A DNA stretch of 64,000 nt from positions 806,001 to 870,000 of the forward strand of contig QPGO01000002.1 of NCBI GenBank assembly GCA_008632985.1, written 5' to 3'. The position numbers were made by a program, and so were the translations under genes. Numbering within the stretch: position 1 is the first letter of the stretch; each line of letters begins with the position of its first letter. Shown one piece after another: positions 32,551 to 62,860 of this stretch. Source of the stretch: Psammoneis japonica. Taxonomy: Eukaryota. The notes beneath the pieces were generated by a model. It saw only the letters and a program-made list of their open reading frames with translations, made no database searches and was not told the DNA's origin.

Positions 32551-32567
32551 AGGGTGTGGTGGGTGGG

Positions 32568-33263: not shown

Positions 33264-33376
33264 CCCCGATGAGAATCCTGGGTAGTGGCCACCAAAAATG
33301 TCGATCCGGAGAGCAGGAAGCTGGAAGACTGTCCTCCGGAGACCTGGCGTCACCAAGGGCTCGCGACCGTCCCGAG

Positions 33377-34930: not shown

Positions 34931-37900
34931 CGAAGCTGCCAAGGGCTGCAGGAGACGAACAAAAAAGAAGGCCAGTTGGCAAGGGCTCGAACATGTCACC
35001 TGGCCAGAACGGCCTTGATCCAGCCGGGACAGCAAACACCAGGTCCGCCGCCTTGTGCAACTGTTTCTGCCACTCCGGAGTCATCAAACGCGGGCAGATG
35101 AACACATGGAACGATGTCTGGCGCTTGATTCTTGCAATCCGGAGCTCTTCTAGGGCCGCTCTCGCCGCGGCTGGAGGTGGGGCCCAGACCCACGTGCCCG
35201 ATCTGAAATGGGGCATTTCGACAGCTTTGCAGGCTGGGTGGCTCCACCCCGCAATGTCATGACCCTTCTGATGCCAATCCAAGGGGGTCAGCAGTTCCGG
35301 AGCTGGAGTCCCAGCCCAAGATTGAACCCACGCAAAGAGAGCAGCCGACCGAGTTGTGGCTCCGAGATGGAGAGGGACAAACGAAAGCATCTTGGCTCCG
35401 TTCATGACACCCTCGGTCAAGACTCCCCTGGACACTCCGTCAGTGCCCTGAGCTGTCATCCGCACCCCCGAGACATGCACGAGACACAGCCCAATCCCAC
35501 ACTTAGCCTCCAAAGATTTCAAGCAAATGACCTGCTCAAGCAGCAGAGGGCTGGTCGAGGTGCCCTTGTGCCAAGCTGTTTCAGCAACTGAGTTGTCCGT
35601 AAAAAAGAACAAACACGCGCCGGTCAATTCCCCCTGCTCCCCAAGTTCTTGGATGGCGTCCACCGTGTTGGATAACTCTTTCCAGTTGGAGGAGTTCCCC
35701 AGATCATCATCGCCCCACACACCGATCCGAAAGACAATGGTTCCGTCCGCTGCTTCCAGGGAGGTCCCAAGGCCTTTTCCAGATGCATCCCCAAAGCCAT
35801 GGAGGACAGTGACAATCTTTGAGGACCGGATGACAACCGCAGAAGGGGTCGGAGACTCCGTGACGCGGGACATGGCAGTTAAATCCATGAACAAACGAGG
35901 GACAGCCGTGACCTGCGGAGGGGGCGGTTGATCCCTTAGCCCCTCAGCAACCTCTGACGGGTCAAGGCCCTGCTTCTCAGCGAGGTGGTGAATCCAGCTT
36001 GCGAATTCTTTCGCAGTCATCGCCCAACCATCCTTCTTTCGATTTGGTCGCCAGGAGTCGAGGGTCAAATGGATTCCTTCAAGGAATGGTGTTAAAAAGG
36101 GGTGAGTCATCGCAAGGTGGACTGGAAATCCCCTCTTCCACTCCAGATCCTCAAAGTCAAATGTAGGGAGGAAGCCCCCCGGACGCCCGGCGTAAAAACC
36201 AAGCAGTTCTGCAATGACACCCTTGGCTTTATCCCATTTGGCCTGGGAAACTGACTGAGCAACATCCCCATCGACAACTCGGAAAATGGCACCAGCCCAG
36301 GCTCCGGTCTCAACCTGCGAGGGGGGGCGCACCTTCCGGGCAGCATTCTGCAGTCCAAGATGCTGCAACCGCGAGGCCATTTGGTGAGCAACTTGCCAGG
36401 CGGATTCCTCATTAGCCCCCATTCCGCGTAAGTCATCAACGAATGTTTTTATGTCGCCAGCAATTTCCTTGCGACGAGAATTCCACTTCATCACGAATGG
36501 TTTCTCCGTCTGGAAGTTGGGATCCCCTGGCAAGTTTAGGAGCAGCTTGTCGCACCCCATGACATTGGAGAGTCGGTTTGGATCGCCTCTGGCAATCTCA
36601 TCGGCCCAATAAAATGCCCTCACCACCAAGCAAGGGCTGGGCCACATCCCCACAAACAAACGGTTCCAACACTCGAACCAGGGCGTGCCCGTCGAGATCA
36701 ACTCCTGGGACCCGAGACATGGCTTGAGAGGCGTCAAGTCGATCCCCGCACATGGCCGAATGTTGGGATCCATGAAGAAGTTTAAAAACATGTCGCCCAG
36801 GTCGAGATCCACTGAAAAGGCAGCACGAGTCATGCACCCCAGAACCGACACAGGAGTGGGCAAGAAAAACGAGGGTGCCCAGAGGGCGTCGTTTAACCCC
36901 GAGGAGGTTCCGTCATAAACCATTCGTACGTCTTCAACGATTTCCACCAAGCGACCATTCTGGGGTTCCACACGGACGGTTTTTGGGACCCAAAAACAAT
37001 CAGTTGGACTGACCACCCTCCCACGATGGACGCAACCTTGGTCTCGGACCTTTTGAATCTTGTCCACCATCCTAAGAATCTCGTGCTCGGACCCCCGGAT
37101 TCTCTGCCGTCGGCGATTGCGAGGGAGAGGGCCCTTGACAAATGTCTGGATCCCATCTCGAGCCCCCACCCGCTGTTCCGGAGTGGGCCACCGCCAGAAC
37201 AAAAGAGACGAACCTCGGTCCCAACTCCACCAGGAGCTGTCCAACACTTGCGCTGACACCTCAGTCCCAAGGTGTGCGTCTAGAAGCAAGGGTGGGAGTG
37301 GAGGGTGGCGGCAAACCCCCCCCTGAAGACGCCCGGTGGCGTCCCCAAAACGTCGGCGTTGTGTCGCCAGCATGGCGACCCAAGTCGGACCACACTCCCA
37401 GCGCAGATGGCCCAGAAAGGACTGAAGGGTCTTTTGCCGCCACCACCGGTGCGCCAAGTCCCGAAGGGCTGGCAAAGCCTCACCAGACCCCGGGAAAATC
37501 AAAGTGATCCTCTCATCCCACAACCGGAAAGGAGGGGCTGCCGCATCCCCCTTTGCAGCTTTCGCCGTCATGAGGGATGCGTCAATCCAAGTGTGGGGTA
37601 AATAGCGTCCGAGAGTCGGCAGCCACGTTCCGGCCTGGCAGACCGGGACCCCGACCTCCGTGTTGTCACACACCATGCCCCCAGGTTGTGACGAATTCCG
37701 GGGCGTGTGATCAACAAACACCTCCACAAAAAGTGTGAGGAGATTCAACGGGACAAGAGGAAATCCCCGCTCGAAAGCCTGATGTACCTGAGGCGTGCGG
37801 AAACACAGGGGAAAATCCCAGGCCGCCAATGTCTCATCCACAGACAGTGTGCGGGTGACCCAACCTGTCGGCGACCGATGCGATGGGTGCACGACTGGTC

Positions 37901-38432
37901 GGGTCAGAAACTGTGGGTTGAGATGGTCGCCCTCATTGTAAAATTCCCCACTCGGGTGTTGTGGCGATGGCGACCCGGGCAGCTTATAGTCGATGATGTG
38001 CCCAATGGACCGCCGCAGGCCTCCATCAAAGACCGGAGCAGGAACCCCCCGCCAGAAGAGTGCAGTCCGAAAGGAAGTGACACCGCCCACCACCGCATGT
38101 GTAATGTCCCGCCGCTGTAACTGGTTTAAACCTAGAAGACTGCGACGCGAAAATGCTCCCACAGGGATCATGATCAAAGATCCCGACCGCATTGTATGAG
38201 CTGCGGACTCAAGGAACGAAGGTGGCCCCGACACGAATACAACATCAACCCGCCTGGTCAGTTGTTCAACACTTGCCCATGAGACCCATGCCAAGGAGGC
38301 ATTCAATTGGTTCCGAAACAGTTCCACTGATAGAGAACCCCAGTGGGAGTCGTCGCAGCAGCAATGAACAGCAGGCCATTCCTTTGGTCGCAAGGACAAG
38401 AGCCAGATTGGGGGACCGGAGGCGAGAATCAA
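34674..38432 (-). CDS. Reverse transcriptase / RNase H polyprotein of the retroelement
   Basis: RT motifs RMVYDGT..GLN, DLDLGDMFLNF and TFVDDLR. RNase H motifs GFGDASGKG, SSNWKEL, FTDNS and HVSG.RM..QGTDGVSRG. Confidence 0.9.
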   Translation of the reverse strand: MILASGPPIWLLSLRPKEWPAVHCCCDDSHWGSLSVELFRNQLNASLAWVSWASVEQLTRRVDVVFVSGPPSFLESAAHTMRSGSLIMIPVGAFSRRSLLGLNQLQRRDITHAVVGGVTSFRTALFWRGVPAPVFDGGLRRSIGHIIDYKLPGSPSPQHPSGEFYNEGDHLNPQFLTRPVVHPSHRSPTGWVTRTLSVDETLAAWDFPLCFRTPQVHQAFERGFPLVPLNLLTLFVEVFVDHTPRNSSQPGGMVCDNTEVGVPVCQAGTWLPTLGRYLPHTWIDASLMTAKAAKGDAAAPPFRLWDERITLIFPGSGEALPALRDLAHRWWRQKTLQSFLGHLRWECGPTWVAMLATQRRRFGDATGRLQGGVCRHPPLPPLLLDAHLGTEVSAQVLDSSWWSWDRGSSLLFWRWPTPEQRVGARDGIQTFVKGPLPRNRRRQRIRGSEHEILRMVDKIQKVRDQGCVHRGRVVSPTDCFWVPKTVRVEPQNGRLVEIVEDVRMVYDGTSSGLNDALWAPSFFLPTPVSVLGCMTRAAFSVDLDLGDMFLNFFMDPNIRPCAGIDLTPLKPCLGSQELISTGTPWFECWNRLFVGMWPSPCLVVRAFYWADEIARGDPNRLSNVMGCDKLLLNLPGDPNFQTEKPFVMKWNSRRKEIAGDIKTFVDDLRGMGANEESAWQVAHQMASRLQHLGLQNAARKVRPPSQVETGAWAGAIFRVVDGDVAQSVSQAKWDKAKGVIAELLGFYAGRPGGFLPTFDFEDLEWKRGFPVHLAMTHPFLTPFLEGIHLTLDSWRPNRKKDGWAMTAKEFASWIHHLAEKQGLDPSEVAEGLRDQPPPPQVTAVPRLFMDLTAMSRVTESPTPSAVVIRSSKIVTVLHGFGDASGKGLGTSLEAADGTIVFRIGVWGDDDLGNSSNWKELSNTVDAIQELGEQGELTGACLFFFTDNSVAETAWHKGTSTSPLLLEQVICLKSLEAKCGIGLCLVHVSGVRMTAQGTDGVSRGVLTEGVMNGAKMLSFVPLHLGATTRSAALFAWVQSWAGTPAPELLTPLDWHQKGHDIAGWSHPACKAVEMPHFRSGTWVWAPPPAAARAALEELRIARIKRQTSFHVFICPRLMTPEWQKQLHKAADLVFAVPAGSRPFWPGDMFEPLPTGLLFCSSPAALGSFGEPRKCVQWSGPCVECGRMLRWTKGVFCANFVHRVGIWPACRKAWCPGCHTSRESVTFHLGGTLEDDPQNDNAQSLGGGLPKAGR

Positions 38433-38543
38433 GCAAGATCCTTGAAAACAGAAGGCCTTTCTGCCCCGTATGATGTGCCTTAGGTCATTCGGCCTATCGA
38501 ACGAGACCTGGCCCTCCCCCGTATCCTCCGTTCCCCATGAATT

Positions 38544-41008
38544 TCACTTCTTGCTCTCCAGAGCCTTAAGCCGACGAGTCAGGTCCTTAATTTCCGTTCG
38601 CAATTTGCCCAGCTCGACGTGCGCCGAGTCGCCTCGGGCCTGGGCTGACTTAGCCTCTGAGCTAGCGTTCTTGGCTTTCTCCGTTAGCATCAGCACCGAA
38701 GATTGCAAATCAGTTGCCACCTCGAATCCCGAGTTTGTAGCCAGAAACTTGACGCATTCCGACACCATAGAAGGGTGGTCGGTAAATCCTAGAGAGGTGT
38801 GCTCTGCCATGACATCGTGGGTCCGAAACACCGCCCACAAAATCTTGCTGCACACTGCATCTGGGTCCGTCCCGGAAATGGAGGTAAAAACCCCGGAGCG
38901 CGCCTTGTGGATGTCCTCGAAAATGCGGTGAGTCAATTTAGTCGTCAAGGACCACGCTTGCTTCTTGGAGAACTTGCTCAGGTCGGTGAGTGATGCACAA
39001 GTAGAGTCCATAAACTGAATTAGCGCCCAAAGAAATGCCACCGATTTCGACAATGCGTCCCGGACCACCTGACTTTCAAATGTTCCCGGTCTGATGCGTT
39101 GGTTAATGTCTTCCATGATGTCGCTCTCCGTTGTGGCGATCTTCCCCTCGATGAAGTGCTTTGTTCCGACATTCCCCGAAGACCAGTGTTCGTGGGTCTC
39201 GATTTTATCCAAGTGAGAGGGGTGCAAACCCAAGGTCTGAGACGACTTCGCAGATCCTGAGTCGAAGATCCGAGGCATGCGATGCTGGAAACCCGCCAGA
39301 GTTCGCGCGTCTTCCTCGGCAGCGACATTCATGCTCATTCGCTTGGCCCACTGAGATAAAAAGTGATGCAGAGCGGTGGGCTCAATCCCCTTAATTTGGT
39401 CCAAGAGCAAGACGACATCAGTTAAGCACCTGCATGCCCTCGAGGGGAAATGCTGTGTCATCCAGGCTTGACACTCCTCGTAGGATGACATGCCAACCCC
39501 CGAGAACTCAATGGCAGACTTGTCTGACTTTGCACGCAACTCACTCACAGCGCGGTCCAGGCGTGTGACCCTTGCTTCCACGGACCCTTGATCGAATGAA
39601 GCGCCGTGAGGTGCAAACCCCGAACCAAACTGGGACTCGATCGACCTGACCTTTGAAGTGAGCTGTGTGCACACACCCGAAGCATGTCATTCTTCAGGTT
39701 TTCCAGATCCGTGCGGCTGGCCGTCAATCCCATCCGATCTTGCATGTGTTGGAACTTCTCATTGAAAGTTCTCACCAGATTGTTAGATTGGTTTCGCCAC
39801 CCCGTCTCCACTTGTGTGACACGCTCGACTGGGTCCGGAGATTGGGTTCCGGCTTCCCGGGATGCAACGTTCGCCAGCGTGCCCCAAAGAGCAGGGGCAA
39901 GAAGAGCCTCATCAAACCCCTGGGTCGGTTCCCCGACAGACGCGTCGAGCTGATCCAGCTTCCGGCTTAGAATCTCAATCATGGACTCCGCAGCGTGGAA
40001 TCGCCTGCCAGCTTTGTCGCCAAAGTCGGCCAGTGCTTCCCCGGCTTGCCTCAACCCATCCTCGGACAACTGGACCACACGGGCCAACGCGGACGGACTT
40101 TTGTTTGCCGCCAGGAACTGCACCGGGGTGGAGAGCATTCGTTTCTCGTACGGCGTGAACCCCTCCAGCACGGTGTCCTCTTGAAGGGTTGACGGTTCCG
40201 GCCACTGCTTCCGAGCCGGTGTCTTGAACTCGGCCGCCCTTTCACACTCCATCAGGGCGGGTTCGACCTCGTCCTCGGTGGAAACAGGTTCGCCATTGCC
40301 CAGCACCAAGAATTTCTGCCGCCAACTGGCTGGTGCATCCGACTCGGCTTCCCACTTGACCAACACTCCACCAGACATGTTCCCGCTGCTTGGGATGGGT
40401 TGACAAAAACCCGTGTCCAGGGACTTGAGGATTGCTGCCATGCCCGACGCCGGAACACTCATCTTGCTGCCCTTGTGCCTCACATTACACTCGCTTGCCT
40501 TCTTGAGACAGAAGGTGGCTCCTCCGCCCTTGATCCCCAAGCACCGGGGTGCCCCAACAGCCTCCAGCCAGGTGATTCGACAACGAGGCACATGCGAGGA
40601 CGAAGAAGACGTGCCTTCCCTCTCCGACTCGACCGTGCCTCCGATGTCACCTGATGAATCCTGCCCAAAGAAACCAACCCGAGACGAGCGGGTTTCCCTC
40701 TGAACCGGGTGGGATGCGTCTCCTTCCAAAACGTGAGTTCCTGGAGGGTGGGAAATGACTTCCCCTGACTCCGCCCTGTCAATGTCCGACTGGGGATGAC
40801 CATAACCCCCCGAAATGTCATCGCTCATGCCTCGAGGATTTAAGCCCTCGTGACCCCCCCCCTGACGTGCAGCCCCAGAGGGGCGAGCCTGAGGAGAGGG
40901 AGCCGCCGGAGAGCTCGACGAGAAAGGCGAGACAACATCCGACTCCAGTTGACGAGCTGAATCAACGAACGCATCATCCGAGATGCCCGAGGCGAAGAAA
41001 TCCGACAT
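38544..41008 (-). CDS. ORF1 (gag-like, coiled-coil, Cys/His cluster) of the retroelement
   Basis: ORFs 39545-41062 and 38544-39674 are joined by a frameshift near 39670. It has a C-x9-C-x6-C-x3-H cluster and a coiled-coil C-terminus, and lies upstream of RT. Confidence 0.7.
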
Positions 41009-41020
41009 GATGAGGGAGAC

Positions 41021-41268
41021 TAAAAAGAAGAATGCTTTTCCAAGCTTGAGTGATCCAGTCACGATGATCAGGGTTCCTGTTCCAACAAAGCTGGAAAAGT
41101 GAGAGAAAAGAAAACCGAAGTTTGACCGGTCACAGTCAGAAGACTAGACCGAGTCATCTTGAGTCGGAAGTACCCTACTTCCGTCGCGGATCCAGCGAGA
41201 GGTCATAGTCATCGAGCGAGGTCGGTTTGAGTCAGTCCGTCTCCATCTAAACTTGGGTACGAGGAGGA
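41021..41268. repeat. Split direct repeat A1
   Basis: Aligns to 32568-32815. Confidence 0.95.
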
Positions 41269-43949: not shown

Positions 43950-44800
43950 TGATGATGGCTAACACTTTCAACTTTTGATCATCAAGAGAGCAGACACGAC
44001 AAAGTCTTCCTTGCTCCAAGAGCACCCATGGCACCATCTTTGGCTTTCAATTGGTCTGCTCATTTCCGTTTGAGTTTGTGAGCTTAGTACAACCTGTGGG
44101 CACGAACGATGGATGCCCCCAGCAGAATTCGTGTCGAGTTTTATGTGAATGACACCGTCGGCTCTCTTTGATGAAGCATTAAAACAAGTCACATGCAACT
44201 GGTCAAGAAGATGATTCTCCCCATTTTCATGGCACAGGCAAAGACAGCACTGTAAAGGAACTGATGCAATGTTGCCACGAGTGAAAAGCAAATGTGGGTG
44301 GAGGAAATGGGGTTTTTCTGCGACTTTTGCTGATGCCAGGAGCTGCGATCCCCCAGCATGCCCTTGCCACAATTGTTGCATCAGGAAGAAACTGTGATGC
44401 AATGCCCAGAGGAGGATTTGGAGTCAGTGTCCTGGTGCAAGACAGCTGATTTGCATGCTCATCACAAGCTGAGTTTGCCAGACAGCACGCCACATTTTTT
44501 CTCTTTGCGGAGGGGGGCAAAATGAGATGTGTGCAAGAGCTGCTCTTTTTGGCTGCTCATCATGATGAACTGCACTCATTTTTGAACATTGTGCCATTTG
44601 CTGTTGTGTTGCTTTCATGAGTTGGTGCAGCAAGGAAAGTGTGGCTGGTTGTGGAGCGGGGGTTTGGCGAGCTCTTGTGGAGCTGGGTCTTCTTGGCTGG
44701 CCAGAGGAAACCCTGCAGCTGGTGAGAGAAGTTTCTTTTGTGCAAAGAAAGCAAAGGAATTGTCGCAGTGTCAAATTAGCATGCCACACTTTTGATGTAG
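43950..44800. pseudogene. TpA-depleted degenerate tract of unidentified origin
   Basis: Low TA, TG/CA excess and spurious Cys/His-rich ORFs. Confidence 0.45.
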
Positions 44801-52772: not shown

Positions 52773-55700
52773 TTATCCCTCTACCAGAAAGTCTTCCAGA
52801 TCAACATACGCATCATCACGGTCATTCCCCGCATCCTGCCCTGCCTCTCGATCACGCTGGAGCATTTGGTCTACCACAAAGTTTCTACTGCGGGGTACCC
52901 GCTTCCTCTTCTCATTTTGGATTTCTTTCTCGATCATTGCATTCTTTCGAGATCGTTTGCGCTTGGCCTGGTCCAAGCCATCATCGGAAGTGTCGTCGTC
53001 TAAAAGGGCTAGACCGAATCCGGAGGAATCGGATAGCGTTTTCAGTTTCATTGAAATCAGATCATGTAGTGTAGTCTCTTCCATATCCAGAACAGCTCCA
53101 TCGTCCGCCTTGAATATGAATTCTTCCACCTTCTGGAGCGCACTGCAAGTCGTCTTTTTGACTGTGGCGTTAAATTTCTGTAAGGCATTTTCAAGCTCCT
53201 GCATGTTCGAAACAACCTTTGGAAGTCGGGCAAGGACAGGTTCCTTTGGAGTATAGATACCTCTAGTGTATTTTGCTGATTCTTTGCTCTTTTCCTTTTC
53301 CGCTTGAAACCACCTTCTCGTTCCTCCAGTCAGGTCAAGACCCGGTACGTCCTGGAGGAGCCATGCCGCGAGACATGTCGTTGATTCCACAACGCCTAAA
53401 GCAGTGATTGCGTCGCACTGTTGATTTGTTCGGATGAAAGCGGAGAGGCGGCGGATTGAACGTTTCAATGCCAGTCCAATCTTGTCCAACAAGGAGCACA
53501 ATCGTAGCTTCCCCTCACTTGTCAGTCTTAAGGCCAAGAGAGCACCAATCGCTGGTTCCTTATTCGTATCAGAGGTGGATTTCTGCTCATCGAGAATTGC
53601 GTAGACGCAAGTGAAAACACCATACAACTCATCAAGTCTCTCGGATCCATAGAGGCTCAAGCAATAGCTTCTTTCCACGTCTTCATTAAACAATCCGGGT
53701 TGCGCGCAAGGAGTACCAACTTCCACACCGCCACTGATGCCGCTCGACTGCATAACTTCGAGAGATTCTGCCCATAGATTCTCCATCGTTTGCATTGAAC
53801 AGCAAAATGACCAGGAAAGAGTCTTCGCGGTGGGCATTCGTATACTCAATTCCTTTCTATCGGATGCGGAGCCGCAATTGCTGGCAGAAAGATCTTGGCA
53901 TCCAGTAGGAATCTCAATCACAGCGGGAATGCGATCTGGCGACCTCGTGCCATCTCCTTGAGGTCGTACATCTTCTCCGTCAGTGTCCAACACGCTACCA
54001 TCCCTTTCCTCATTATCCATCGTACCGGTGACTTCCACGCCAGCGATCTCGCTCCACACTGCTTTGGGGTCCAATTCGTCCCAGACTTTGAGAAGGCTGA
54101 GACACTGTTCAAATACCATTGAGTAAAAGCATTCCAATTCTTCGAAATCCTGTCCACTCTGGCATGTCCATTGCGCTATGTTTGTTCTTGTTAAGCAGCG
54201 GGGTATAGAAGGAATCAAATCCATAAGAAGCATCAGTACTTTCCTAAAAATCCGAGAAAGCGGCAGCGATACAGTGCAAATGATTTTCCACATGCGCAAT
54301 GCCACCGTTCGACAAGCTTCCCAAATTTCAACGGCGCCTCTGTGGTCAACATTCTTGTCTGATTCGCGAAAAATGTTGATAGCTACTTCCAATAGGTCTA
54401 GGTACGTTGACAACATGTTGGTGTCCATACCTCCACTCTCACCTTCCAAGCCTGACAACACGTCGGAAGAGAGAGTGTCGAGACAACTTGTCCAGAACGC
54501 GAGTGGCAACAGCGAACCCACGGAGGAGTCAACAGTACCACCAACTGGTGTAATGAAATTGTCCGAGGCACCACTGAGCAAGCTCAGCAATGTGGAAAGG
54601 AGATTTAGCCTGACTTGCCTAACTGCCCCATCGACTTCTTCACTTGATTTAAGTCCCATAAGTGAGAAACTCTTGTCCTTGTCTCTGTCAACCACAAGTG
54701 CGGGATTTTGATGATGAAAGTTTTTCTCTTCCAGAAATAGAATAAACCGTTTAGACGCGTCCTCGTTTCCGATAGCCTCGTACAACCGCCAAAGACTCTT
54801 CACGGAAAGTGTGCATTCCTCGCAGTGGATATTATTGTCGGCCCCCTTCAACTCGTGTCGCTGGATTAAGTCTTGAATGTCGTCGCCGTAAATCAATAGT
54901 GACTTGTATAGATCGTTAACGTCCTCAATTTTCGATTCTCTGAAGTCTTTCAAGACCTTGGAAGCAACGCCGAAGAAGACTCCTCCTGTCTTGATGAGCG
55001 ACCCAGCATTATACTCGATTGTCTCTTCGGAACCAAAACTGCATCTTAGCAAAATTAGAGTGCTTACGCATTTGAATAGGCACTTTGAATAGTCTTCAGA
55101 AAAACTTTCAGCTTCGTAAGAGGACAAATTTTGATCCAAAAGGGATTCGATCAGGACACTACAAAAAGACGCCAACATGCTCTTCGAGATTAAACAGTCG
55201 TCTTGTATCGACGAGGGGGTGGATGATAAATTGTCACTTGATGGAGCAGAAAGAGTCGCCCATCTGTGTTGATTTCGTTGGTTGATACTTTGATCTTGTC
55301 TTGGAGTTCTAGCGACCGATGCACAAAGATCGCTTTCTTCCCCTACGAGGGACGCGCGAAGGAGTTGGCATGTATCTAAATGTGACAACTTTTGAACCAC
55401 AAGAAGATAATTAGTCTTCACTTCAATCGTAGAACATCCCACAATGCATAGTAGTACAGCGCAAAGGCATGAAACTGTTGCTTTCTCAGAAAGCGCAATA
55501 GTTTGCTCCAGGTTCTGAAAGGAGTTGGAAGGGTGTGATGCTTCGCTCGAAACTCCGCATAGTCCGGTGATGAGATGCTTGTGTCCCTCGAGTAAGACTT
55601 CTTTTCGGGTTTCGTCTCGACGTGATGCCGCAACCTCAAGGGCTATTATCAACCGAAGCAAGGATACCGTATCGTCTCTCAGCGAAGAGCACTTCTTTCG

Positions 55701-58166
55701 CGAGCCCTGTCCTTTCGCATCGCTGTGCCAATAGCTAGCAATTGCCAGCTGAGGAGAGAAACAAAAGCCACCTCTGGCGTCAGCACAAAAGTTCGAGAAT
55801 CTCATTAAACATGATCTCAAGATGATATCGACCGTCTCCGACGATATCGCTTCGTTCTGGGCTAAGAAAATGAGGCGTTGATACAGCCATGCCCTCGCTG
55901 ATACTGTCAGGACCGGATTTTGGTTCAAAACGATCATATCCGACAGCATCATTCGTGCTTCTACCCCGCACTCATCGATTAAAGAGTCTTCGCTGTCTGG
56001 CAAAAGCGCACACAAGCCGTGAAGCGCTTTCACAACGCGGTCTTGGCCGGCTCTGCAACGTTCACCGGTTGTCCTCCCTCTACATTCCCACGACACGCCA
56101 AAAAAGGGAGTCTGGAGCATCTTTCGGCAAGAGGAAAGTATCGCAGTCCGCGCAGAGTGCACAGGTGACAGCGCTGTTGCTAGATGACAAAATGCATCTT
56201 TCGACAAGGGTCCAGAGAATATATTTTTCAAAATCGGGCGCAACGGTTCCATCAGGTCCTCGCTGCGAAACGACGTCTCCTCGAGATGGCGAATGGTCTT
56301 GACCAATACCTCCAGGGTGATGCAAAACAAGAAAGAGCGACTCTCGACGGCGTAAAAGCCAGTATCTTCCAGAGGAGCATGAGTGGGGTTTGAACCATTT
56401 TTCCCCACGAAAGACTGCATCAACATACAAACTGTGCTCGCTCTCGATGATGGGATGTCAACGTAAGTGATAACCACGGCCCAGACAGCCAACACAATGT
56501 CCTCAAGTGTCAGTTGGTAGGATTTGTCTGAGTGTTTAAAAACGATGGATTGAGCGGCATGCACCCAAAGCTGCGCCCTTTCCGAGTAGGCAAGCAAAGC
56601 GGCAGAAGATAGGTTTGTGATACTGTCGCGGGCTTGCCGTTGACCAAGAAAGATGCAGTCATGAACTAGTTTCGTACAACGCCTTGACAGTAGCACCGCT
56701 GTTGCATTGTTTTCTCCTGTAGAACCCACAGTCCCATGACCTTGGTAGCACGTAGTCTGCAAAAAATCGCGCGCCTCATTCAAAGTGACTTCATTTTGGA
56801 CTCTTGGGTTCTTGTGCTTGCTTTTACGTCCTCGTTTTGACAACACTTTCCTACCTTCGTCTGGAAATGCAATTCGAACCAACACACTCCAGCTCTTGTG
56901 CACTAAATCTATTCCGTCGTTCTCGTTTGAAGCGTATCCAAATGCACGAGACAACAAGTGCGATACAAGCTGGGATCCCGATTGCTGAATAGCTTCAAGT
57001 AGCACCAGCTGCAGATTTGCCCGAACCCAGGTTGGGACCTTGTCGACACTCGTTGTATCTGATGTGATCGTTAATGCATGATTCACCCACGAATGTAGCG
57101 TTGGGGTGGAGAGCATGGATACACTCGATTTCAGCACCGTCTCAACTGTAGAAAAATTTTGCCTGTCGTCACATGCAGTCTTCATGAAAAGGTACAATAC
57201 AAGATCATGCCATGAGGGCCCCTCCACATCAACATCACGTTCTGTCGAGAAGAACGTTGTGACAATGACCTGAATCAAACCGGGGTAGTCTTGTCTGTCG
57301 ATCCCCCCTTCTTCTTGAAACAGCTTTTTGTGCAGAACTCTTTTCAAAACCACAAGTTGCGTTGGTTGCAAGTGCGATTTGTTCTGTGATGCAATGGTGA
57401 GCCAAGATAACAATCGATTGGAAGCAATACTGCTACGAAAAATCAGGGCGAGGATTTCCTCCTTAATGGATTCGTGGCCATGTTGCAACTCGGCTCGCTT
57501 GTCTACTGCATCGCAGAGAGACAAGAGGCTGGGAAGCACTTGTTCGAGTGGTAGCATCCAATCATTTTGCTTTGCTGAAATGTCGTCTTCCTGAACACCT
57601 ACCAGTGGTTCAAGCATGATTCGTGCAAGTTCTGTCAGTGCCATTCTTGGTGTACACTTATTTGATACGGCGTTCGGGTTGTTTCGCCCGCGTTTCGTCG
57701 TTGAAGTTGTAGCGATGTGACTTGGAGTGAGCCAGTTCGAGACAGATTCTTGTAGAAACGTCTGAAGATCTGCAAGGGCTGACCACTTGGAATGTTTGGT
57801 GTGTAATATGCAAGCTTCCAGCAATGATTGATCTGTAGTTCTACTGTGCTGAAACGCCATAAGAACGTTTGATGCAACTTTCCAGACAGTGTCATACCAA
57901 GGCGGGGTCCAGAGGAGGCCTCTTATCATAAAGTAGCAATCCGATTCCACCATTTCCTGCCTGCACAGCTTATCATAGACGGATCGTGCTGGTATCGAAG
58001 GACAAGAAAACAGAGGTATATCGACAGCGTTACTGTCGTGTTGTAGAGGAGGAAGTTGCGAAAGACCGAAACACTGACAAACACGACGCTGATTTCGTTC
58101 ATCTACCGCACGTTTCAGATCAAGCCCCACTGCGGTAGCAGTTTCTTTTCCAGTTATCTTAGACAT
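52773..58166 (-). CDS. Large hypothetical alpha-helical protein, 1797 aa (weak FANCI-like C-terminal resemblance)
   Basis: Single uninterrupted ORF, Leu-rich. The C-terminus has LARLPKVVSNMQELE, a basic NLS-like stretch and RSRN..D..L...DLEDFLV. Confidence 0.8.
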   Translation of the reverse strand: MSKITGKETATAVGLDLKRAVDERNQRRVCQCFGLSQLPPLQHDSNAVDIPLFSCPSIPARSVYDKLCRQEMVESDCYFMIRGLLWTPPWYDTVWKVASNVLMAFQHSRTTDQSLLEACILHTKHSKWSALADLQTFLQESVSNWLTPSHIATTSTTKRGRNNPNAVSNKCTPRMALTELARIMLEPLVGVQEDDISAKQNDWMLPLEQVLPSLLSLCDAVDKRAELQHGHESIKEEILALIFRSSIASNRLLSWLTIASQNKSHLQPTQLVVLKRVLHKKLFQEEGGIDRQDYPGLIQVIVTTFFSTERDVDVEGPSWHDLVLYLFMKTACDDRQNFSTVETVLKSSVSMLSTPTLHSWVNHALTITSDTTSVDKVPTWVRANLQLVLLEAIQQSGSQLVSHLLSRAFGYASNENDGIDLVHKSWSVLVRIAFPDEGRKVLSKRGRKSKHKNPRVQNEVTLNEARDFLQTTCYQGHGTVGSTGENNATAVLLSRRCTKLVHDCIFLGQRQARDSITNLSSAALLAYSERAQLWVHAAQSIVFKHSDKSYQLTLEDIVLAVWAVVITYVDIPSSRASTVCMLMQSFVGKNGSNPTHAPLEDTGFYAVESRSFLFCITLEVLVKTIRHLEETSFRSEDLMEPLRPILKNIFSGPLSKDAFCHLATALSPVHSARTAILSSCRKMLQTPFFGVSWECRGRTTGERCRAGQDRVVKALHGLCALLPDSEDSLIDECGVEARMMLSDMIVLNQNPVLTVSARAWLYQRLIFLAQNEAISSETVDIILRSCLMRFSNFCADARGGFCFSPQLAIASYWHSDAKGQGSRKKCSSLRDDTVSLLRLIIALEVAASRRDETRKEVLLEGHKHLITGLCGVSSEASHPSNSFQNLEQTIALSEKATVSCLCAVLLCIVGCSTIEVKTNYLLVVQKLSHLDTCQLLRASLVGEESDLCASVARTPRQDQSINQRNQHRWATLSAPSSDNLSSTPSSIQDDCLISKSMLASFCSVLIESLLDQNLSSYEAESFSEDYSKCLFKCVSTLILLRCSFGSEETIEYNAGSLIKTGGVFFGVASKVLKDFRESKIEDVNDLYKSLLIYGDDIQDLIQRHELKGADNNIHCEECTLSVKSLWRLYEAIGNEDASKRFILFLEEKNFHHQNPALVVDRDKDKSFSLMGLKSSEEVDGAVRQVRLNLLSTLLSLLSGASDNFITPVGGTVDSSVGSLLPLAFWTSCLDTLSSDVLSGLEGESGGMDTNMLSTYLDLLEVAINIFRESDKNVDHRGAVEIWEACRTVALRMWKIICTVSLPLSRIFRKVLMLLMDLIPSIPRCLTRTNIAQWTCQSGQDFEELECFYSMVFEQCLSLLKVWDELDPKAVWSEIAGVEVTGTMDNEERDGSVLDTDGEDVRPQGDGTRSPDRIPAVIEIPTGCQDLSASNCGSASDRKELSIRMPTAKTLSWSFCCSMQTMENLWAESLEVMQSSGISGGVEVGTPCAQPGLFNEDVERSYCLSLYGSERLDELYGVFTCVYAILDEQKSTSDTNKEPAIGALLALRLTSEGKLRLCSLLDKIGLALKRSIRRLSAFIRTNQQCDAITALGVVESTTCLAAWLLQDVPGLDLTGGTRRWFQAEKEKSKESAKYTRGIYTPKEPVLARLPKVVSNMQELENALQKFNATVKKTTCSALQKVEEFIFKADDGAVLDMEETTLHDLISMKLKTLSDSSGFGLALLDDDTSDDGLDQAKRKRSRKNAMIEKEIQNEKRKRVPRSRNFVVDQMLQRDREAGQDAGNDRDDAYVDLEDFLVEG

Positions 58167-59430
58167 GGTTCAGTCAAAGGGTGATGTGACACCTTTTCCC
58201 AGCTCCCAGCACCCAATCCGATTTTGCAATGGGTTTGCGATATTGGCATCAAAATAATGAGCCTCTTGGAATCATCTGTCGCGCATCGCGCAAAGCAACA
58301 GGCGAGTGTGGCGCTGCGCCGTCGTCACCGGCACGTCCATCACATCTTGCACTGCAGGGCCTGCGCCTAAGGCAGGGCCCTCCACTCTCTCTAGCCAGAG
58401 CAGTGCTCCTGGCTCTAGCTAGAGAGGGCCTAAATTACAGTGGGCCCCAGAGAGAGGACAATTCAGTGCAGAGAGTGGATTGTGTTGCAGCACAAGTGCA
58501 GGCTGTGCAGGCCCTGGCTGCAGCGCAGCTCTGCAATGGGAAATGTGAGACAGCTGGACTTTCTCAAGAACGCTGCAGTGGGGCTTGCTCCAAGCAAGTT
58601 GGCCGGCCCTCTGCAGCAGCTGTGGGGCTACAAACACAATTCCATTGGCACCTGTGGATCCAGCTGCAGCCCTGGATCATAAAGCAGCAACCCGATTCCA
58701 CCATTTCCTGCCTGTGCACAGCTTGTCACAGACGGATCGTGCTGGCATCGAAGGACAAGAAAACAGAGGTGTGTCAACAGCGTCACTGTCGTGTTGCAGA
58801 GGAGGAAGTTGCAAAAGACCAAAACACTGACAAACATGATGCTGATGTTGTTCATCTGCCGCACGCTTCAGATCAAGTCCCACTGCGGCAGCAGTTTCTT
58901 TTCCAGTTGTCTCAGACATGGTTCAGTCAAAGGGTGATGTGACACCTTTTCCCAGCTCCCAGCACCCATTCTGTTTTTGAAATGGGTTTGTGCTGTCCTG
59001 GCATCAAAATCATCCTCTTGGAGTCATCTGTCACGCGTCGTGCCAAGCAACAGGCGAGTGAGAGTGCACGCTGCACCGTCGTCACCGGCACGTCCATCAC
59101 ATCTTGTGCTGGAGGGCCTGAGGCAGGGCCCACTGCTCTCTCTAGCTAGAGCAGTGCTCCCAGCTCTAGCCAGAGAGGGCCCAAATTACAGCAGGCCCTG
59201 GAGAGAGGACAATTCAGTGGAGAGAGTGGGCTGCATTGCAGTGCGAGTGTGGGCCATGTGGGCCCTGCAGTGCAGTTCTGAAATGGGAAACATGAGATGG
59301 CTAGACTTTCTCAAGAACGCTACAGTGGGGCTTGCTCTAAGTAAGTCGGCCGGCCCTCTGCGGCAGCCATGGGGTGACAAACATAATTCTACCGGCAGGG
59401 CCCCACCTGTGGATCCAGCTGTAGCCCTGG
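57925..59430. repeat. Tandem duplication of about 750 bp (57925-58675 / 58676-59430) covering the 5' end and upstream region of the 1797-aa gene
   Basis: Both units start atcataaag(t/c)agcaa and end cagctg(c/t)agccctgg. Confidence 0.92.
58677..58919 (-). pseudogene. Hypermutated truncated copy of the first about 80 codons of the 1797-aa gene
   Basis: MSETTGKETAAAVGLDLKRAADEQHQHHVCQCF versus MSKITGKETATAVGLDLKRAVDERNQRRVCQCF. Confidence 0.9.
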
Positions 59431-59486
59431 CATGACACAGCAGTGCCTCTAGAGGGCTCACCGAGGCGCATCAACAGGAAGCTTTT

Positions 59487-59958
59487 TTTCAACGCTATTT
59501 GAGCAGGATGGAATCACAAACGAGCAGCAAAACCATGGAACGAACAGACTTGTACTATTCATGTTACTAACTAGATAGCAGAAGAATGCTCGTCGGAAAC
59601 AACAGGAATCCTTTTCAATCGTTGTCCATCTGAACTAATCTAAATTCTGAAACATTATGGCAAGAGGGGGTATGTTATGGGAGGGGAGATTATCCCTTCC
59701 ATCGCGGCACGGCCCTTTCTTTTCAACGCTATTTGAGCAGGATGGAATCACAAACGAGCAGCAAAATCATGGAACGAACAGACTTGTACTATTCATGTTA
59801 CTAACTAGATAGCAGAAGAATGCTCGTCGGAATCAACAGGAATCCTTTTCAATCGTTGTCCATCTGAACTAATCTAAATTCTGAAACATATAATGGCAAG
59901 AGGGGGTATATGTTATGGGAGGGGAGATTATCCCTTCCATCGCGGCACGGCCCTTTCT
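59487..59958. repeat. Near-identical tandem duplication of about 235 bp (59487-59720 / 59721-59958) downstream of repeat protein B
   Basis: tttcaacgctatttgagcagg...ggccctttct occurs twice with about 4 differences. Confidence 0.92.
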
Positions 59959-62860
59959 TTATCCTGCCGCCTCGATACAGAAGTCAAGCTCTCCAACAGC
60001 CTCGCAGTCGCCAATAGCTGCTACCACTGGTGAACCCTTGACATCAGTTCGCTTGCTGTAGCAGTCAGGGACGCACGCATCAAGAGTTGCAGGCTCCGTA
60101 ACCGTAAGCTGTCTACCGCCTTCAAGTACAAGCTGCGAGGGATTAACACCTTCAATAAGGTCCTTGACATCTCCGTCACAATCACGCTCCCACTCTGTGA
60201 TTTGGAGCGCATCAGCACCCCTGTTGAAAGCTGTGTAGTTGTAATCAACATCAAACAAACATTGGTTGTCAGTGCCATCTAAGCTTCTGCATCGTTCAAT
60301 CTGCAAGGCACCAAACTGATCCTTGAGATTAAGGGGTTGGTCTTCTCCAGATGAATCAAAAAAGATGTTCTGGACAACAGCATCGATTCCTTCTTCGACG
60401 TTAATGATGTCGCAATTAAGATCTGGCGGTAAGCACGTTGCGTTGGCGCCAATTGTGATGGTTTGATTCTCGGTGACGGTGCAGTTGCAGTACACTCTCA
60501 CTGTATCTCTGCAAAAGATCAAAGCGTCTCCACCCTGAGGGATGGTATTCTCGGGGAAGTCAGTACAGTTATAGGGAGGAGAAGTTTGATCGTTCATGGC
60601 TTCATCACAGAGAATAGCACGCCACGAAAAGGTCAACCTGTCAATGCATTCTCCTCCGCCGCACGTTTCATCGGGAGGTACAAGCTCGTCACAATTGTCC
60701 TCGGAGCCACGAACAATACATTGAACACTAGCCTGTTGATGTGTTTAATTAAAAGGAAAGAAAAAGAAAGTGAGAACGATGCCACACGGGTGGAGGGAAT
60801 GTGATATGAAAAAAAAAACTTACATCGAGTTCGCACGTGGGCTCCGCGGGCTCCGGGATGCAAAGGTCGTATCCATCTTCATCTTCGCAGATGCTTCCAT
60901 CTTCACCTTCTCCCACAACATTTACGGTACAATTGATACACCCGGGAGTACAGCTGTCGATTGTGGCGGGTTCTGTGATGCCGAGTGACTGCATCGCTGG
61001 AATAGGGATGCCGCCAGGAGGCAGAAGATCCTTCTCTTCTCCGTTGCTGCAGGTACGTTCAAATTCAGTGATAGTCAAGTCAACATTACCTGGGTTTTCT
61101 ATGACATAAGTGTAATTTACGTCAAAAATACACTGGGAGTCGATTTCACCATCCTGGGTTTTGCAAGCTTTAATCTGCAATGCACCAAATGTGTCATCAA
61201 GATTAAGCGTCGAGCTACCGGATGCATCAAAGATGTTTTCTTGATTGACGGCATTAAGACCCGACTCGACATCAATGATGGTGCAGTTGAGTTCCGTTGG
61301 GAGACAAGTACCGTTGGCGGCACCAATTGTGATTGTTTGGTTGATTTTGACGGTGCAGTTGCAGTACACCCTTTCAGTATCTACGCATACGATCAATGCA
61401 TCACCACCTTGAGGAATGGTGTTCTCTTCGAAATCTGTACATAAAGCGTTTTCTTGATCATTGTCATCCTCTGAACAAAGAATATCAATCCAGGCAATGG
61501 TCAAACGGTCGATACATTCGCCACCGTTACAGGTTTCGGGGGGAGGCTCGATGACATCGCATGGTTCACCAGTGTCTGCGAGGATACAGTCCATCGTAAC
61601 CTGAAAAAAAAATATGTGTGGAAGATATCATTGAGAATCGTTAGGTAAGAGAGAAATCGACAGAAGAGAAAGATCATCAGTTAAAAGAAGATTGAGAGAT
61701 TCAACTTACGTCCACTTCACAAGGCAACTCAATGCAGAATTCGTCAGATTCACTGTCTTCACAAATAACCCCCTCTTCATCCTCAGCTCTGACAATAATC
61801 TCGGTCGTGTAGCAGTCCTCGACGCATCGGTCCAGCACTTGAGTTTCCATGGGATCTACGCTATCTCCCGGCGCCAGTGTTGTAGGATCGACAAGGTCAA
61901 TCAAGTCATCGGTTTCACCGTTGCGAGTGCGCAAAAGCTCAGTAACTGTAAAAGTAGTGGAGCCCGTATTGTCAATCGGGTAGGTGTACTTTAGATCCAA
62001 GAAGCAATCTTCCACGTTTCCGTCATCATCCTCACAACTCTTTAGCGTCATGCTTCCAAACTTGTCTTGGAGTTGCAAATCCACCGTTCCTGATGTATCG
62101 AAAGTAAGCGTTTGACAGAGCCTATTTCCGTTGGGGCTAGAGATAGTACATGTCATAGTGTCTGGAAGAGTAGAGCCCTCGTTAGCCTCGAGAGTAAAGA
62201 AGGGGTTGGGGTTAGGGTTGGTCTCTGGACGGATGGTGTTGTCTTCGAAGGTGAAACCATCTCCCTCACAGAAGATTCTCACGCGAGGATAACCGCTGCA
62301 TTCTTCTTGAAATTCAGGATTATCTTCGCATTCGAATGCACCATCGTCGCCTTGCTGACTGTTGCTACTCGCGTCGCAGTCACAGTACTCGTACTCGAAC
62401 GTGAGCTTCGTGAGCGGGTCGCTGCCTTCAGCACAGTTGCCATCAATCGGTGGGATTTCGTCACAGGGGGTACCAGCTGGTACATCGTCGGCTCCATCTT
62501 GAACTTCGCACACAAGGCCCACCTGATTATTGTTCATGACAAGAAGAAGACGATGTGTGTTAGCACGGAGAGTATTCTAGAAAATGTTGTGAGACAGTAT
62601 TTTCTTACTTCAACGTCGCACACTCCAGTAGGAGGTGGAGTAGGAGGAGGCGTAGGAGTGATAGGTGGTGGCGTTGGCACCACACTCATGGTGTCCTGAA
62701 GAAGCCGGGACCAGTACTGCTCATCGTCAGCTCCAAGGTCACGCACGGCATCCTTGACTTTGGAAATCACAGATCTCCTCGTTCCTGCGGCGGTGACGCC
62801 GTCGGCCCATGAGAGGGCAATGCTGGTAACTGCGAACAAGGCAGACCCAAGAAATCTCAT
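59959..62860 (-). CDS. Secreted Cys/Asp-rich repeat protein B (3 repeats), paralogue of protein A
   Basis: Signal peptide, YWSRLLQ, PTPPP linker and repeats with LQLQDKFGS / LNLDDTFGALQ / LNLKDQFGALQ. Exons at about 62860-62607, 62523-61710, 61601-60824 and 60731-59959. Confidence 0.82.

Follow-up and report, generated by a model that had tools for sequence, protein, structure and literature searches.

Probable regional TpA-specific A:T>G:C transitions alongside CpG decay in a diatom genome window

Comparison of repeated sequences within a 64,000-nucleotide window of the Psammoneis japonica genome (contig QPGO01000002.1, positions 806,001 to 870,000; "the window" is this whole stretch) very likely records a regional, TpA-specific A:T>G:C process acting alongside CpG decay. 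This is a claim about the phenomenon and not about an enzyme: we show its sequence context, its direction, its regional limits and its coupling to CpG decay, and that the cause is an enzyme, we infer. The signature has so far been reported only from one unrelated alga, Bigelowiella natans.

A duplicated gene start and the direction of change

The focal locus is a tandem duplication of ~751 bp at the start of an intact orphan gene, with the following features.

52773..58166, minus strand: intact orphan ORF of 1797 aa from the ORF list, starting with the ATG at 58166; the initial 242 bp serve as reference copy
57925..58675: tandem repeat unit A, the gene's first 80 codons and ~510 bp upstream, from self-alignment
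58676..59430: tandem repeat unit B, the gene-start relic and the copy of the upstream region, supported by public contigs
58676-58919, minus strand: gene-start relic inside unit B, in which a 2-bp insertion breaks the reading frame
58219..58334: CpG-rich proximal upstream region of the intact gene, with 13 of 14 CpG retained
58440..59140: hypermutated domain of ~0.7 kb, with approximate boundaries set after seeing the data, reaching from the last part of A into the first part of B
59483..59960: young TA-rich tandem repeat of two ~240-bp copies with 96.7% identity, which adjoins the domain and is the negative control

Units A and B are 84% identical in nucleotides and 93.7% identical in the purine/pyrimidine alphabet (self-alignment). 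Their coding parts align over 242 columns with 22 mismatches. The 13 TpA of the A coding part appear in B as seven CpA, five TpG and one shared TpA; the 15 CpG appear as three CpA, three TpG and nine shared. The remaining differences are four other substitutions and one 2-bp insertion, and the B coding part has no private TpA or CpG. These counts reproduce those that the sequence-only reading had made by hand for 57925-58166 against 58676-58919 (12 of 13 TpA, 6 of 15 CpG, four others and the insertion). The changes are confined to particular dinucleotides. W>S transitions affect 12 of the 27 A/T bases within TpA and only 2 of the 104 other A/T bases (Fisher p = 3.9e-8), the excess over other contexts that the same reading had expected, and a general WA>WG spectrum, as from a polymerase-eta-like activity, is absent. 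S>W changes affect 6/30 CpG bases and 1/81 other C/G bases (p = 0.0015).

Searches of Pfam, PDB and PHROGs gave no match to the 1797-aa ORF, and the search for a homologue or related locus found none, so the arguments for the polarity at 57925-58919 are indirect. At all six CpG differences in the coding part, A has CG and B has TG/CA, never the reverse; since the polarity of CpG decay is known, B is the mutated copy. The B state has one TpA in 244 bp, which is below every 242-bp window elsewhere in the gene (minimum 3, mean 8.1), and the 13 TpA of the A state fall within the range of those windows. The TpA observed/expected ratio (o/e) is 0.74 in the first 242 bp of the gene and 0.49 in the remainder. 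Judged by this CpG co-decay, by the single domain into which the losses fall, by the depleted blocks and by 8 of 11 homologue-conserved Tyr recoded to His or Cys (the last three described below), TpA sites on either strand went A:T>G:C, which bears out the direction first proposed. Over three repeat pairs in the window, the 39 sites with TA in one copy and TG/CA in the other comprise 24 CA and 15 TG outcomes, so both strands were hit.

The opposite reading takes TG/CA as ancestral, with C>T at CpA/TpG having made TpA in the intact gene copy, as in fungal RIP. Direction is not directly observable from the two focal copies, and a second allele or close copy from the same organism, which has the A state at 11 of 12 sites, carries the B state (C) at 58160, so that this site was either hit twice independently or went from C to T in A. 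Against this reading, 12 hits (9 nonsynonymous) would have been needed in an intact ORF with neither a new stop nor a CpG hit, the dead copy would have taken all six CpG hits and no TpA-creating hit, and the ancestral gene start would have had one TpA in 242 bp. It could not produce the TpA-free kb-scale blocks of the window, the Tyr>His/Cys changes polarised by homologues contradict it, and RIP would mutate both copies along the duplicated length, which is not seen. We consider it very improbable.

An assembly or base-calling artefact at modified bases is the least credible of all the alternatives. Modified bases can lead a long-read consensus into systematic transition errors. Public contigs from a run of the same organism nevertheless cover 58186-59560 with 0 differences and so support the variant bases, although that run is possibly the source sample of the window. 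In addition, copy B is matched over 58834-58984, with one difference, by a 151-nt contig of an unrelated marine-sediment metagenome, and this contig bears the B-specific states.

A delimited domain, depleted blocks and a recoded insert

The duplication extends ~510 bp upstream of the ATG, and in this part the TA and CG differences run in both directions: private TA number 3 in A and 8 in B, and private CG 6 in A and 5 in B. Thirteen TG/CA doublets are also found there, for which CpG ancestors alone suffice as explanation.

Taking TA as ancestral, TpA is lost at 20 of 21 inferable sites inside 58440-59140 (1 kept) and at 3 of 33 outside it (30 kept), in the same duplicated sequence, so that a delimited stretch is changed far more than its flanks. 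A runs test that uses no boundary, applied to the order in which A or B retains TA along the alignment, has p = 0.0004. The domain straddles the repeat junction, and the outer halves of units A and B retain TpA. A TpA-free run occupies 58682-59142, and TpA loss in copy B is uneven, 12/13 in the coding relic and far less past about 59140. CpG losses co-localise with the TpA losses (15/36 inside the domain against 2/36 outside, p = 6e-4), in agreement with the earlier suggestion of a mutator that acts regionally and is linked to silenced DNA with CpG decay. The CpG>TpG/CpA excess of 5mC-type decay is thus found in the coding relic, in the domain and in the depleted bins described below (o/e 0.17). 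Inside the domain TpA loss exceeds CpG loss (20/21 vs 15/36, p = 4.7e-5), as had also been claimed. The unit-B copy of the CpG-rich upstream region (58972-59091) retains 9 of its 14 CpG.

The young repeat provides the control. Its copies (59483-59722 and 59717-59960) differ by four substitutions, none of them TA to TG/CA, and share 12 TpA. The process had been called repeat-associated, and in the RIP sense this does not hold: the domain ignores the repeat units, their outer halves are spared and the adjacent young repeat has no change at its 12 TpA. By the positions of the changes, the process is domain-targeted, not repeat-induced like RIP.

Similar footprints occur elsewhere in the window, as extended blocks and in a retroelement-like insert.

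8832..10255: TpA- and CpG-depleted block, by composition
15672..16666: TpA- and CpG-depleted block, by composition
20040..24504: largest block, nearly free of TpA and CpG, where TG+CA o/e is ~2; internal degenerate repeat at about 21883-22019 and 23939-24078
30675..32137: TpA- and CpG-depleted block adjoining the retroelement-like insert, by composition
44255..44776: TpA- and CpG-depleted block, by composition
32100..41268, minus strand: GC-rich retroelement-like insert, with split direct repeats and four open ORFs
41021-41268 ... 32813-33263, 32568-32815, 32100-32550: split direct repeats of the insert, from self-comparison

The 16 doubly depleted 500-bp bins have 0.34% TA, 1.03% CG and 23.1% TG+CA, and the 88 normal bins have 4.07%, 5.54% and 14.7%. 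Total YpR is constant (24.5% in depleted and 24.3% in normal bins), TG+CA regressed on TA+CG has a slope of -0.95 (r = -0.86), and strong shifts between the two sets of bins are limited to the TA, CG and TG/CA classes. ApT o/e is nearly unchanged (0.95 depleted vs 0.84 normal), which counts against the alternative chemistry taken up below; 6mA in eukaryotes lies at ApT in active genes without depleting this dinucleotide (PMC12695648, in the part available). The window has 30 TpA-free runs of at least 200 bp, the longest of 1288 bp; in 50 Markov simulations there are on average 3.4 such runs and at most 7, and the longest has 331 bp. A domain search of 88 ORFs in the old depleted blocks found none above noise, and the ORFs of block 20040-24504 have no Pfam domain.

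A genome-wide bias against TpA which, together with CpG decay, equilibrates wherever selection is absent, given time, would require no targeting. TpA is indeed scarce window-wide (o/e 0.48, and 0.60 in normal bins). Yet the units of the duplication are copies of one sequence and of equal age, and their non-coding TpA are lost inside 58440-59140 and kept outside it, in both directions. The intact gene has retained every synonymous TpA of its first 242 bp, several presumably non-coding bins have TpA o/e of about 1.0-1.17, and the young repeat has no TpA changes at 3.3% divergence, whereas the insert repeats have 16 at about 3.9%. Such an untargeted bias is improbable, if somewhat less so than the RIP direction.

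The insert has TpA o/e of 0.25 and CpG o/e of 0.8. Between its repeat pairs, 27/27 substitutions are transitions at YpR steps, and 16 of them are TA vs TG/CA. Its four ORFs all terminate in TGA, and ATA makes up 1/70 Ile codons in the insert ORFs vs 34/289 in host ORFs. We aligned the 1172-aa ORF (34674-38192) with the best 60 of 6032 homologues, 150 of which were listed, and took as conserved the columns with at least 60% Tyr. At 8 of 11 such family-conserved Tyr (TAY) columns, the ORF has His or Cys (CAY/TGY): four His and four Cys, with two Phe and one Tyr at the others. Among those best 60 of 6032 homologues no sequence has more than two His/Cys at the 11 columns (median 0). In the same alignment, the ORF retains 7/7 conserved His and 20/22 conserved Trp, and with 0.51% Tyr it is poorer in this residue than any of the best 60 of 6032 homologues (minimum 1.35%). 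The targets observed thus are one retroelement-like element, the focal duplicate of an orphan gene start, and old blocks with no recognisable domain.

A-to-I editing of double-stranded transcripts, ADAR-like with its 5'-U preference and fixed via reverse transcription, would fit the 5'-T preference and the one retroelement-like target. The focal target is, on the contrary, a gene start with its promoter that was duplicated in tandem as DNA, not a retrocopy, the differences between the insert's own direct repeats post-date integration, and the blocks are sharply regional in DNA coordinates. To our knowledge, ADAR is confined to animals. RNA-level editing is thus as remote as the RIP direction.

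Known systems and candidate causes

The sequence-only reading knew of no described system of this kind, but one exists. Mettrop et al. (bioRxiv 10.64898/2026.01.13.699255; all statements here refer to the available portion of the preprint) describe the same TpA-only signature in integrated NCLDV and virophage DNA of Bigelowiella natans, a chlorarachniophyte. Its mutation-accumulation lines acquired 230 of 231 A>G/T>C mutations within two integrated viral regions, all of them at TpA. The hypermutation is regional, about 1000-fold over background, and the genome has 124 TpA-poor, CpA+TpG-rich clusters, in which unannotated, transposon-related or viral ORFs abound. An ADAT2-like adenine deamination of DNA is proposed, and the preprint's Discussion gives a 5' U/T preference for ADAR and TadA/ADAT. 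Its cluster thresholds, which we applied with the standard observed/expected ratio in place of its Rho formula, are passed by 10/64 1-kb windows here, five of them consecutive at 20001-25000.

The two cases are alike, as far as that portion of the preprint goes, in TpA-only A>G/T>C change that gives TpG or CpA by strand, in regionality and in a TpA-poor, CpA+TpG-rich footprint. They differ in host, a diatom (stramenopile) here and a rhizarian there, and in evidence, as our signature is inferred from sequence comparison and the B. natans mutations arose de novo. Domains here are 0.5-4.5 kb against 25-186 kb, and the targets include a gene-start/promoter duplicate and a retroelement-like insert, where those of B. 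natans are viral insertions. Strong CpG decay co-localises here, and the available text on B. natans has 0 mentions of a CpG effect; since it is silent on CpG, it is an assumption that one mechanism acts in both organisms. In its sequence pattern this is the same TpA-directed signature, here coupled to CpG decay, and, the window being from a diatom, a new member in a second lineage.

Other systems share parts of the pattern. As in fungal RIP, dinucleotide-context transitions degrade redundant or invasive DNA and accompany silencing. RIP, in contrast, is C:G>T:A mostly at CpA and creates TpA, where TpA is destroyed here; and RIP is triggered by duplication and hits both copies along the duplicated length, where only a positional domain is hit here and a neighbouring duplication is spared. 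Neither TpA enrichment via C:G>T:A nor mutation of both copies over the duplicated length was found. The CpG>TpG/CpA changes in the same domains are like decay from 5mC, which accounts for the CpG part and no more: TpA loss is more complete, and the insert has TpA loss without CpG loss. APOBEC3 (C>U on DNA) and ADAR (A>I on dsRNA) restrict retroelements and viruses in animals; as with these and with TadA-derived adenine base editors, base deamination would here mutationally inactivate invasive nucleic acid. We know of no natural eukaryotic DNA adenine-deaminase defence that has been demonstrated biochemically.

By analogy, the leading candidate for the cause, which we put forward tentatively, is an adenine deaminase of ADAT2/TadA type that works on DNA at 5'-T-A. 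The same phenomenon could have another chemistry, with no adenine deaminase: a modified T in TpA (5-hydroxymethyluracil or a base-J-like TET/JBP product) that mispairs with G, or error-prone or aberrant base-excision repair in methylated DNA that gives T>C. T>C at TpA on one strand is indistinguishable from A>G on the other, the outcomes are 24 CpA and 15 TpG, and TpA loss co-localises with CpG decay, that is, with presumably modified or repaired DNA. In dinoflagellates, 5hmU prefers TpA. Routes through a glycosylase and AP sites should, on the other hand, add transversions, and at TpA we find 23 transitions against two transversion-type changes in the A/B pair and only transitions in the insert repeats. 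We consider this chemistry rather unlikely, behind the deaminase. The sequence-only reading had noted no candidate enzyme in the window, and in agreement with it, deaminase, MT-A70, TET/JBP and DNMT domains were unseen in the 84 of 120 ORFs of at least 115 aa that were scanned.

Proposed course and meaning

Whatever the enzyme, two transition processes at YpR steps have very probably rewritten 58440-59140, a chromatin-sized domain of ~0.7 kb centred on the upstream, redundant copy of the duplicated promoter and gene start. One is fast and TpA-specific, A:T>G:C, turning TpA into TpG or CpA by the strand hit. The other is slower, the ordinary CpG>TpG/CpA decay expected from 5-methylcytosine in silenced diatom DNA (for cytosine methylation of diatom TEs, see the available part of PMC9998398). 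Just beyond the domain, the intact gene with its CpG-rich proximal promoter is untouched even at synonymous sites. On this reading both processes are near completion in the older blocks of the window, and the TpA process alone has recoded the retroelement-like insert. Their aim is regions (silenced, foreign or redundant DNA), and not sequence duplication as such.

Neither TAA nor TAG can arise by TA>TG/CA, so such a process cripples proteins (Tyr to His/Cys) and leaves reading frames open. Diatoms may, we suggest with some reserve, share the TpA-directed DNA-editing defence of Bigelowiella, in which case this "editing immunity" would be old and SAR-wide. Its diatom form would work together with 5mC on small domains of silenced chromatin, would hit redundant host promoters and mobile DNA alike, and would inactivate proteins by Tyr>His/Cys with ORFs left open. 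If this is true, open-frame recoding would also explain many of the long orphan ORFs in such genomes.

A hypermutated domain across a tandem duplication

The orphan gene is intact, and its start is duplicated in tandem next to a second, TA-rich repeat:

52773-58166, minus strand: intact orphan ORF of 1797 aa, with its ATG at 58166
57925-58675: unit A of the tandem duplication, the gene's first 242 bp and ~510 bp of upstream sequence
58676-59430: unit B of the tandem duplication, directly adjoining unit A
59483-59722 and 59717-59960: TA-rich tandem repeat, 96.7% identical, a few hundred bp from the hypermutated domain

No entry in Pfam, PDB or PHROGs matches the 1797-aa protein, and we detected no homologues at near or shorter lengths. 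Four paralogous DUF7467 genes with ~67% DNA identity (50073-51659 and 59959-62537, minus strand) flank the orphan gene and the domain.

The coding parts of units A and B are the stretches compared in the sequence-only reading, and our recount reproduces its figures exactly. The 242 aligned coding columns include 22 mismatches. Twelve of the 13 TpA in A appear in B as CpA (7) or TpG (5), and 6 of the 15 CpG appear as TpG/CpA. Besides these there are 4 further substitutions and one 2-bp insertion, which disrupts the reading frame of copy B. There is no TpA or CpG private to B. Among A/T bases, 12/27 within TpA have changed versus 2/104 elsewhere (p = 3.9e-8), and among C/G bases, 6/30 within CpG versus 1/81 elsewhere (p = 0.0015). 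Over their full length, units A and B are 84% identical in nucleotides and 93.7% identical in RY code. Contigs from a sequencing run of the same organism, perhaps the very sample behind the window assembly, show 0 differences along 58186-59560, and another study's marine-sediment metagenome has a 151-nt contig that maps to copy B with 1 difference. No RNA run is among the matching public runs listed. The pattern of TpA and CpG changes is real and highly non-random, with a context effect far above chance. A general WA>WG signature, in which A/T bases outside TpA would also change, is rejected by how few of those bases do; GC-biased gene conversion is rejected as there is no effect outside TpA.

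In the rest of the duplication, which is non-coding and mismatched at 67 of 496 aligned columns, TA and CG differences run both ways: A has 3 private TpA and 6 private CpG, B has 8 and 5, and at 13 sites one copy has TG where the other has CA. At face value, this weakens the intact gene as a polarising reference. The difficulty is resolved because the sites map to one physical domain. Taking TA as ancestral, losses are found at 58396, at 20 sites in 58555-58994, and at 59171 and 59182, and TA survives at 57929-58436, 58680 and 59143-59422; since losses and survivals separate along the sequence, the losses make up a single domain of ~0.7 kb. This domain covers distal upstream sequence of A, crosses the coding relic of B and reaches into B's proximal upstream sequence. 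Inside ~58440-59140, boundaries that we chose post hoc with the data already seen, 20/21 inferable TpA are lost versus 3/33 outside, which bears out the proposal of a regional mutator. A boundary-free runs test on which copy retains TA along the alignment gives p = 0.0004. CpG loss, a change of undisputed direction, follows the same limits, with 15/36 lost inside the domain and 2/36 outside (p = 6e-4); the CpG-rich proximal upstream region of the intact gene (58219-58334) keeps 13/14 CpG, and its copy in B 9/14. TpA has been lost more completely than CpG within these limits (p = 4.7e-5), as had been claimed from the coding part. A uniform genome-wide bias on neutral DNA is ruled out by the two units, which have the same sequence and age and differ by position alone.

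Same-organism contigs also include an alternative version of 57400-58195, for which 11 of 14 differences are listed. This second allele has the state of A at 11/12 TpA sites and the state of B at 58160; it also differs at 58152 (CA/CG) and 57990 (TG/GG). As three sequences cannot be rooted, the second allele tells us no more than that A did not recently acquire its TA states as private changes. The exception at 58160 is mild counter-evidence to TpA loss, or a parallel hit. Upstream of the ATG (in the 57400-58310 region) the second version skips ~85 bp (58196-58280) and continues into CpG-richer sequence unlike the window. Contig depths, which are unreliable for this use, hint that the duplication may be confined to one haplotype.

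Direction of the change

Metagenome scans, one using residues 1-300 of the protein and one a degenerate DNA pattern, gave no outgroup DNA for the focal repeat, and viral sequences gave no match to the whole 1797-aa protein. Direction is therefore argued from several independent lines, which together uphold the A:T>G:C change at TpA put forward in the sequence-only reading. CpG polarity points to the in-domain copy as the mutated one. The B state has 1 TpA per 244 bp (o/e 0.06), fewer than any 242-bp window elsewhere in the gene (minimum 3, mean 8.1), and the 13 TpA of the A state fall inside the range of these windows. A third line comes from five depleted blocks, of ~50% G+C, where both TpA and CpG are nearly absent:

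8832-10255: depleted block
15672-16666: depleted block
20040-24504: depleted block, the largest
30675-32137: depleted block
44255-44776: depleted block

The dinucleotides of depleted and normal 500-bp bins differ as follows.

Dinucleotide composition of 500-bp bins
Class: depleted (n=16); normal (n=88)
TA: 0.34%; 4.07%
CG: 1.03%; 5.54%
TG+CA: 23.1%; 14.7%
Total YpR: 24.5%; 24.3%

Total YpR is unchanged (regression slope -0.95), and strong shifts are limited to the TA, CG and TG/CA classes, with ApT o/e going from 0.95 to 0.84. Runs of at least 200 bp free of TpA number 30 in the window and add up to 11.5 kb (longest 1288 bp); in 50 first-order Markov simulations their number averages 3.4 and never exceeds 7, and the longest is 331 bp. 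A process that makes TpA cannot yield such sequence. The largest block contains a degenerate internal repeat whose copies differ mostly by TG/CA doublets (18), the expected end state if each copy independently resolves each ancestral YpR step. The window has single N bases at 10645 and 30925; that at 10645 is at the edge of a degenerate repeat (10000-10202 and 10646-10851) adjoining a depleted block.

The fourth line is polarised by homologues, and comes from a retroelement-like insert:

32100-41268, minus strand: GC-rich (56%) insert of ~9 kb, with split direct repeats and four open ORFs (487, 315, 1172 and 321 aa)

The direct repeats are in the order A1 ... B1-A2-B2 on the minus strand, a layout that we take to resemble Ngaro/PAT-type tyrosine-recombinase retroelements, and the 321-aa ORF presumably resembles a tyrosine recombinase; none of the four ORFs has a Pfam match. 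Repeat pairs of the insert differ by 27 substitutions, and 27/27 are transitions at YpR steps: 16 are TA versus TG/CA, 7 are CG versus TG/CA, and 4 are within two doublets. A very large, unannotated family includes the 1172-aa ORF; it comprises 6032 representative clusters, with the best relative at 45% identity, and its consensus has a YVDD motif. A sub-threshold RVT_1 match appears in 1/12 homologues, and a profile of the family alignment finds no match among PDB sequences. We aligned the ORF with the best 60 of 150 homologues listed (6032 found). At the 11 columns with at least 60% Tyr, the window protein has His 4 times, Cys 4 times, Phe twice and Tyr once, and in any of the 60 homologues His or Cys occurs at these columns at most 2 times (median 0). 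It retains 7/7 conserved His and 20/22 conserved Trp, and the reverse case of Tyr at a family-His column occurs 0 times, in an alignment that has no conserved Cys columns. With 0.51% Tyr, it is poorer in this residue than every one of the 60 homologues (minimum 1.35%, median 2.5%). Tyr is coded by TAY, His by CAY and Cys by TGY, so each change from Tyr to His or Cys is one transition at TpA, either TA>CA or TA>TG. Overall, Tyr makes up 0.65% of the four element ORFs versus 2.21% of 13 host ORFs; all four element ORFs end in TGA, and ATA is 1/70 of their Ile codons.

In this element, TpA is low (o/e 0.25) and CpG nearly normal (o/e 0.8), which indicates that the TpA process can proceed without CpG decay or far ahead of it. 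The right window edge (63410-63999) has the same TpA-only profile, with TpA o/e 0.04, CpG o/e 0.65 and 56% G+C, and may be another such element running past the edge. TA>TG/CA changes create neither TAA nor TAG, and TGA arises only from TAA, so that by the genetic code the reading frames of mutated copies should remain open.

Trigger and mechanism

The sequence-only reading called the changes repeat-associated; a trigger by repeats, as in RIP, does not hold here. The extent of the domain is not matched to the repeat units, all synonymous TpA in the intact gene start are retained (9/12 of the TpA changes would be nonsynonymous if placed in the gene), and the neighbouring TA-rich tandem repeat is spared, with 4 substitutions of which 0 are TA to TG/CA. 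For these reasons, the TpA hypermutation is not repeat-induced in the manner of RIP. At the centre of the domain lies the redundant upstream copy of the promoter and gene start, and a plausible trigger is the silencing of that copy.

The TpA changes are transitions only, hit both strands and have regional limits, and the process is coupled to CpG decay yet separable from it. The cause would be an enzyme-driven lesion at TpA in silenced DNA. Deamination of adenine to inosine by an ADAT2/TadA-like enzyme is our leading candidate, tentatively held; its main rival, thymine modification or aberrant repair, we regard as unlikely. A 6mA route is rejected for the wrong dinucleotide and chromatin context: eukaryotic 6mA is reported to occupy ApT sites of active genes without depleting that dinucleotide (PMC12695648), which counts against it. 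Deaminase, MT-A70, TET/JBP and DNMT domains do not appear in the 84/120 window ORFs of at least 115 aa that were scanned. The strand hit mostly reads 5'-YTAY-3' (16 versus 4 where the strand classes differ, binomial p = 0.012), a weak preference and a lead only, found post hoc in a small sample of 39 sites from three pairs with TA assumed ancestral. Diatom transposons are reported to be under cytosine methylation control (PMC9998398), which agrees with the CpG decay in the window.

Precedent and meaning

Other genes in the window are:

6542-7438: cytochrome c1 ORF, best relatives at 82% identity and none identical
3143-5735 (minus strand) and 11596-13819 (plus strand): two inverted paralogues, ~67% identical, of a CSC1/RSN1-type 10-TM channel gene

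The cytochrome c1 relatives carrying organism names (4 among those listed) are all diatoms, including Fragilaria crotonensis and Thalassiosira oceanica; the other two names we read as Attheya and Triceratium. This eukaryotic window has few introns, which together with the two alleles fits a diploid diatom and not Bigelowiella natans.

The comparison with B. natans matters because a 2026 preprint reports the same signature there, so the earlier statement that no such system had been described does not hold. In that preprint (bioRxiv 10.64898/2026.01.13.699255), 231/302 nuclear point mutations in 15 mutation-accumulation lines are within an integrated NCLDV region and a virophage region, and 230 of the 231 are A>G or T>C, every one at TpA. 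Regional rates are ~1000 times background, with only some lines affected. TpA-poor, CpA+TpG-rich windows form 124 clusters in the B. natans genome, rich in unannotated and transposon-related genes, and an ADAT2-like protein is proposed as a DNA adenine deaminase; the preprint makes no mention of diatoms, stramenopiles or CpG. By the preprint's thresholds, 10/64 1-kb windows here qualify, 5 of them in succession. Our literature search found the TpA signature in no diatom or other organism beyond that preprint, and reports of TpA-specific A:T>G:C hypermutation to date concern one organism. The signature here is the same, in a diatom; three features are added, namely CpG decay in the same places, the small size of the domains, and the targeting of a redundant copy of a host promoter and gene start.

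For annotation, hypermutated regions retain long ORFs that are dead genes. TpA-free DNA has stop-free frames of up to 250 aa on both strands, as in 58190-58939 (plus strand), because TGA is the sole stop remaining, and ORFs in such blocks are likely to be mis-annotated as genes. When 88 stop-to-stop ORFs of the depleted blocks are compared with Pfam, there are just 4 weak matches (E 0.035-0.049), which we take as noise. Hypermutated regions also shed sequence similarity quickly, yet their purine/pyrimidine pattern persists. The same footprint in a diatom would place the process in a second major eukaryote lineage. Diatom genetics is established, so that knockouts could identify the enzyme responsible. 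The diatom case would show that the process can act alongside cytosine methylation, and that its targets include redundant host DNA and not viruses alone.
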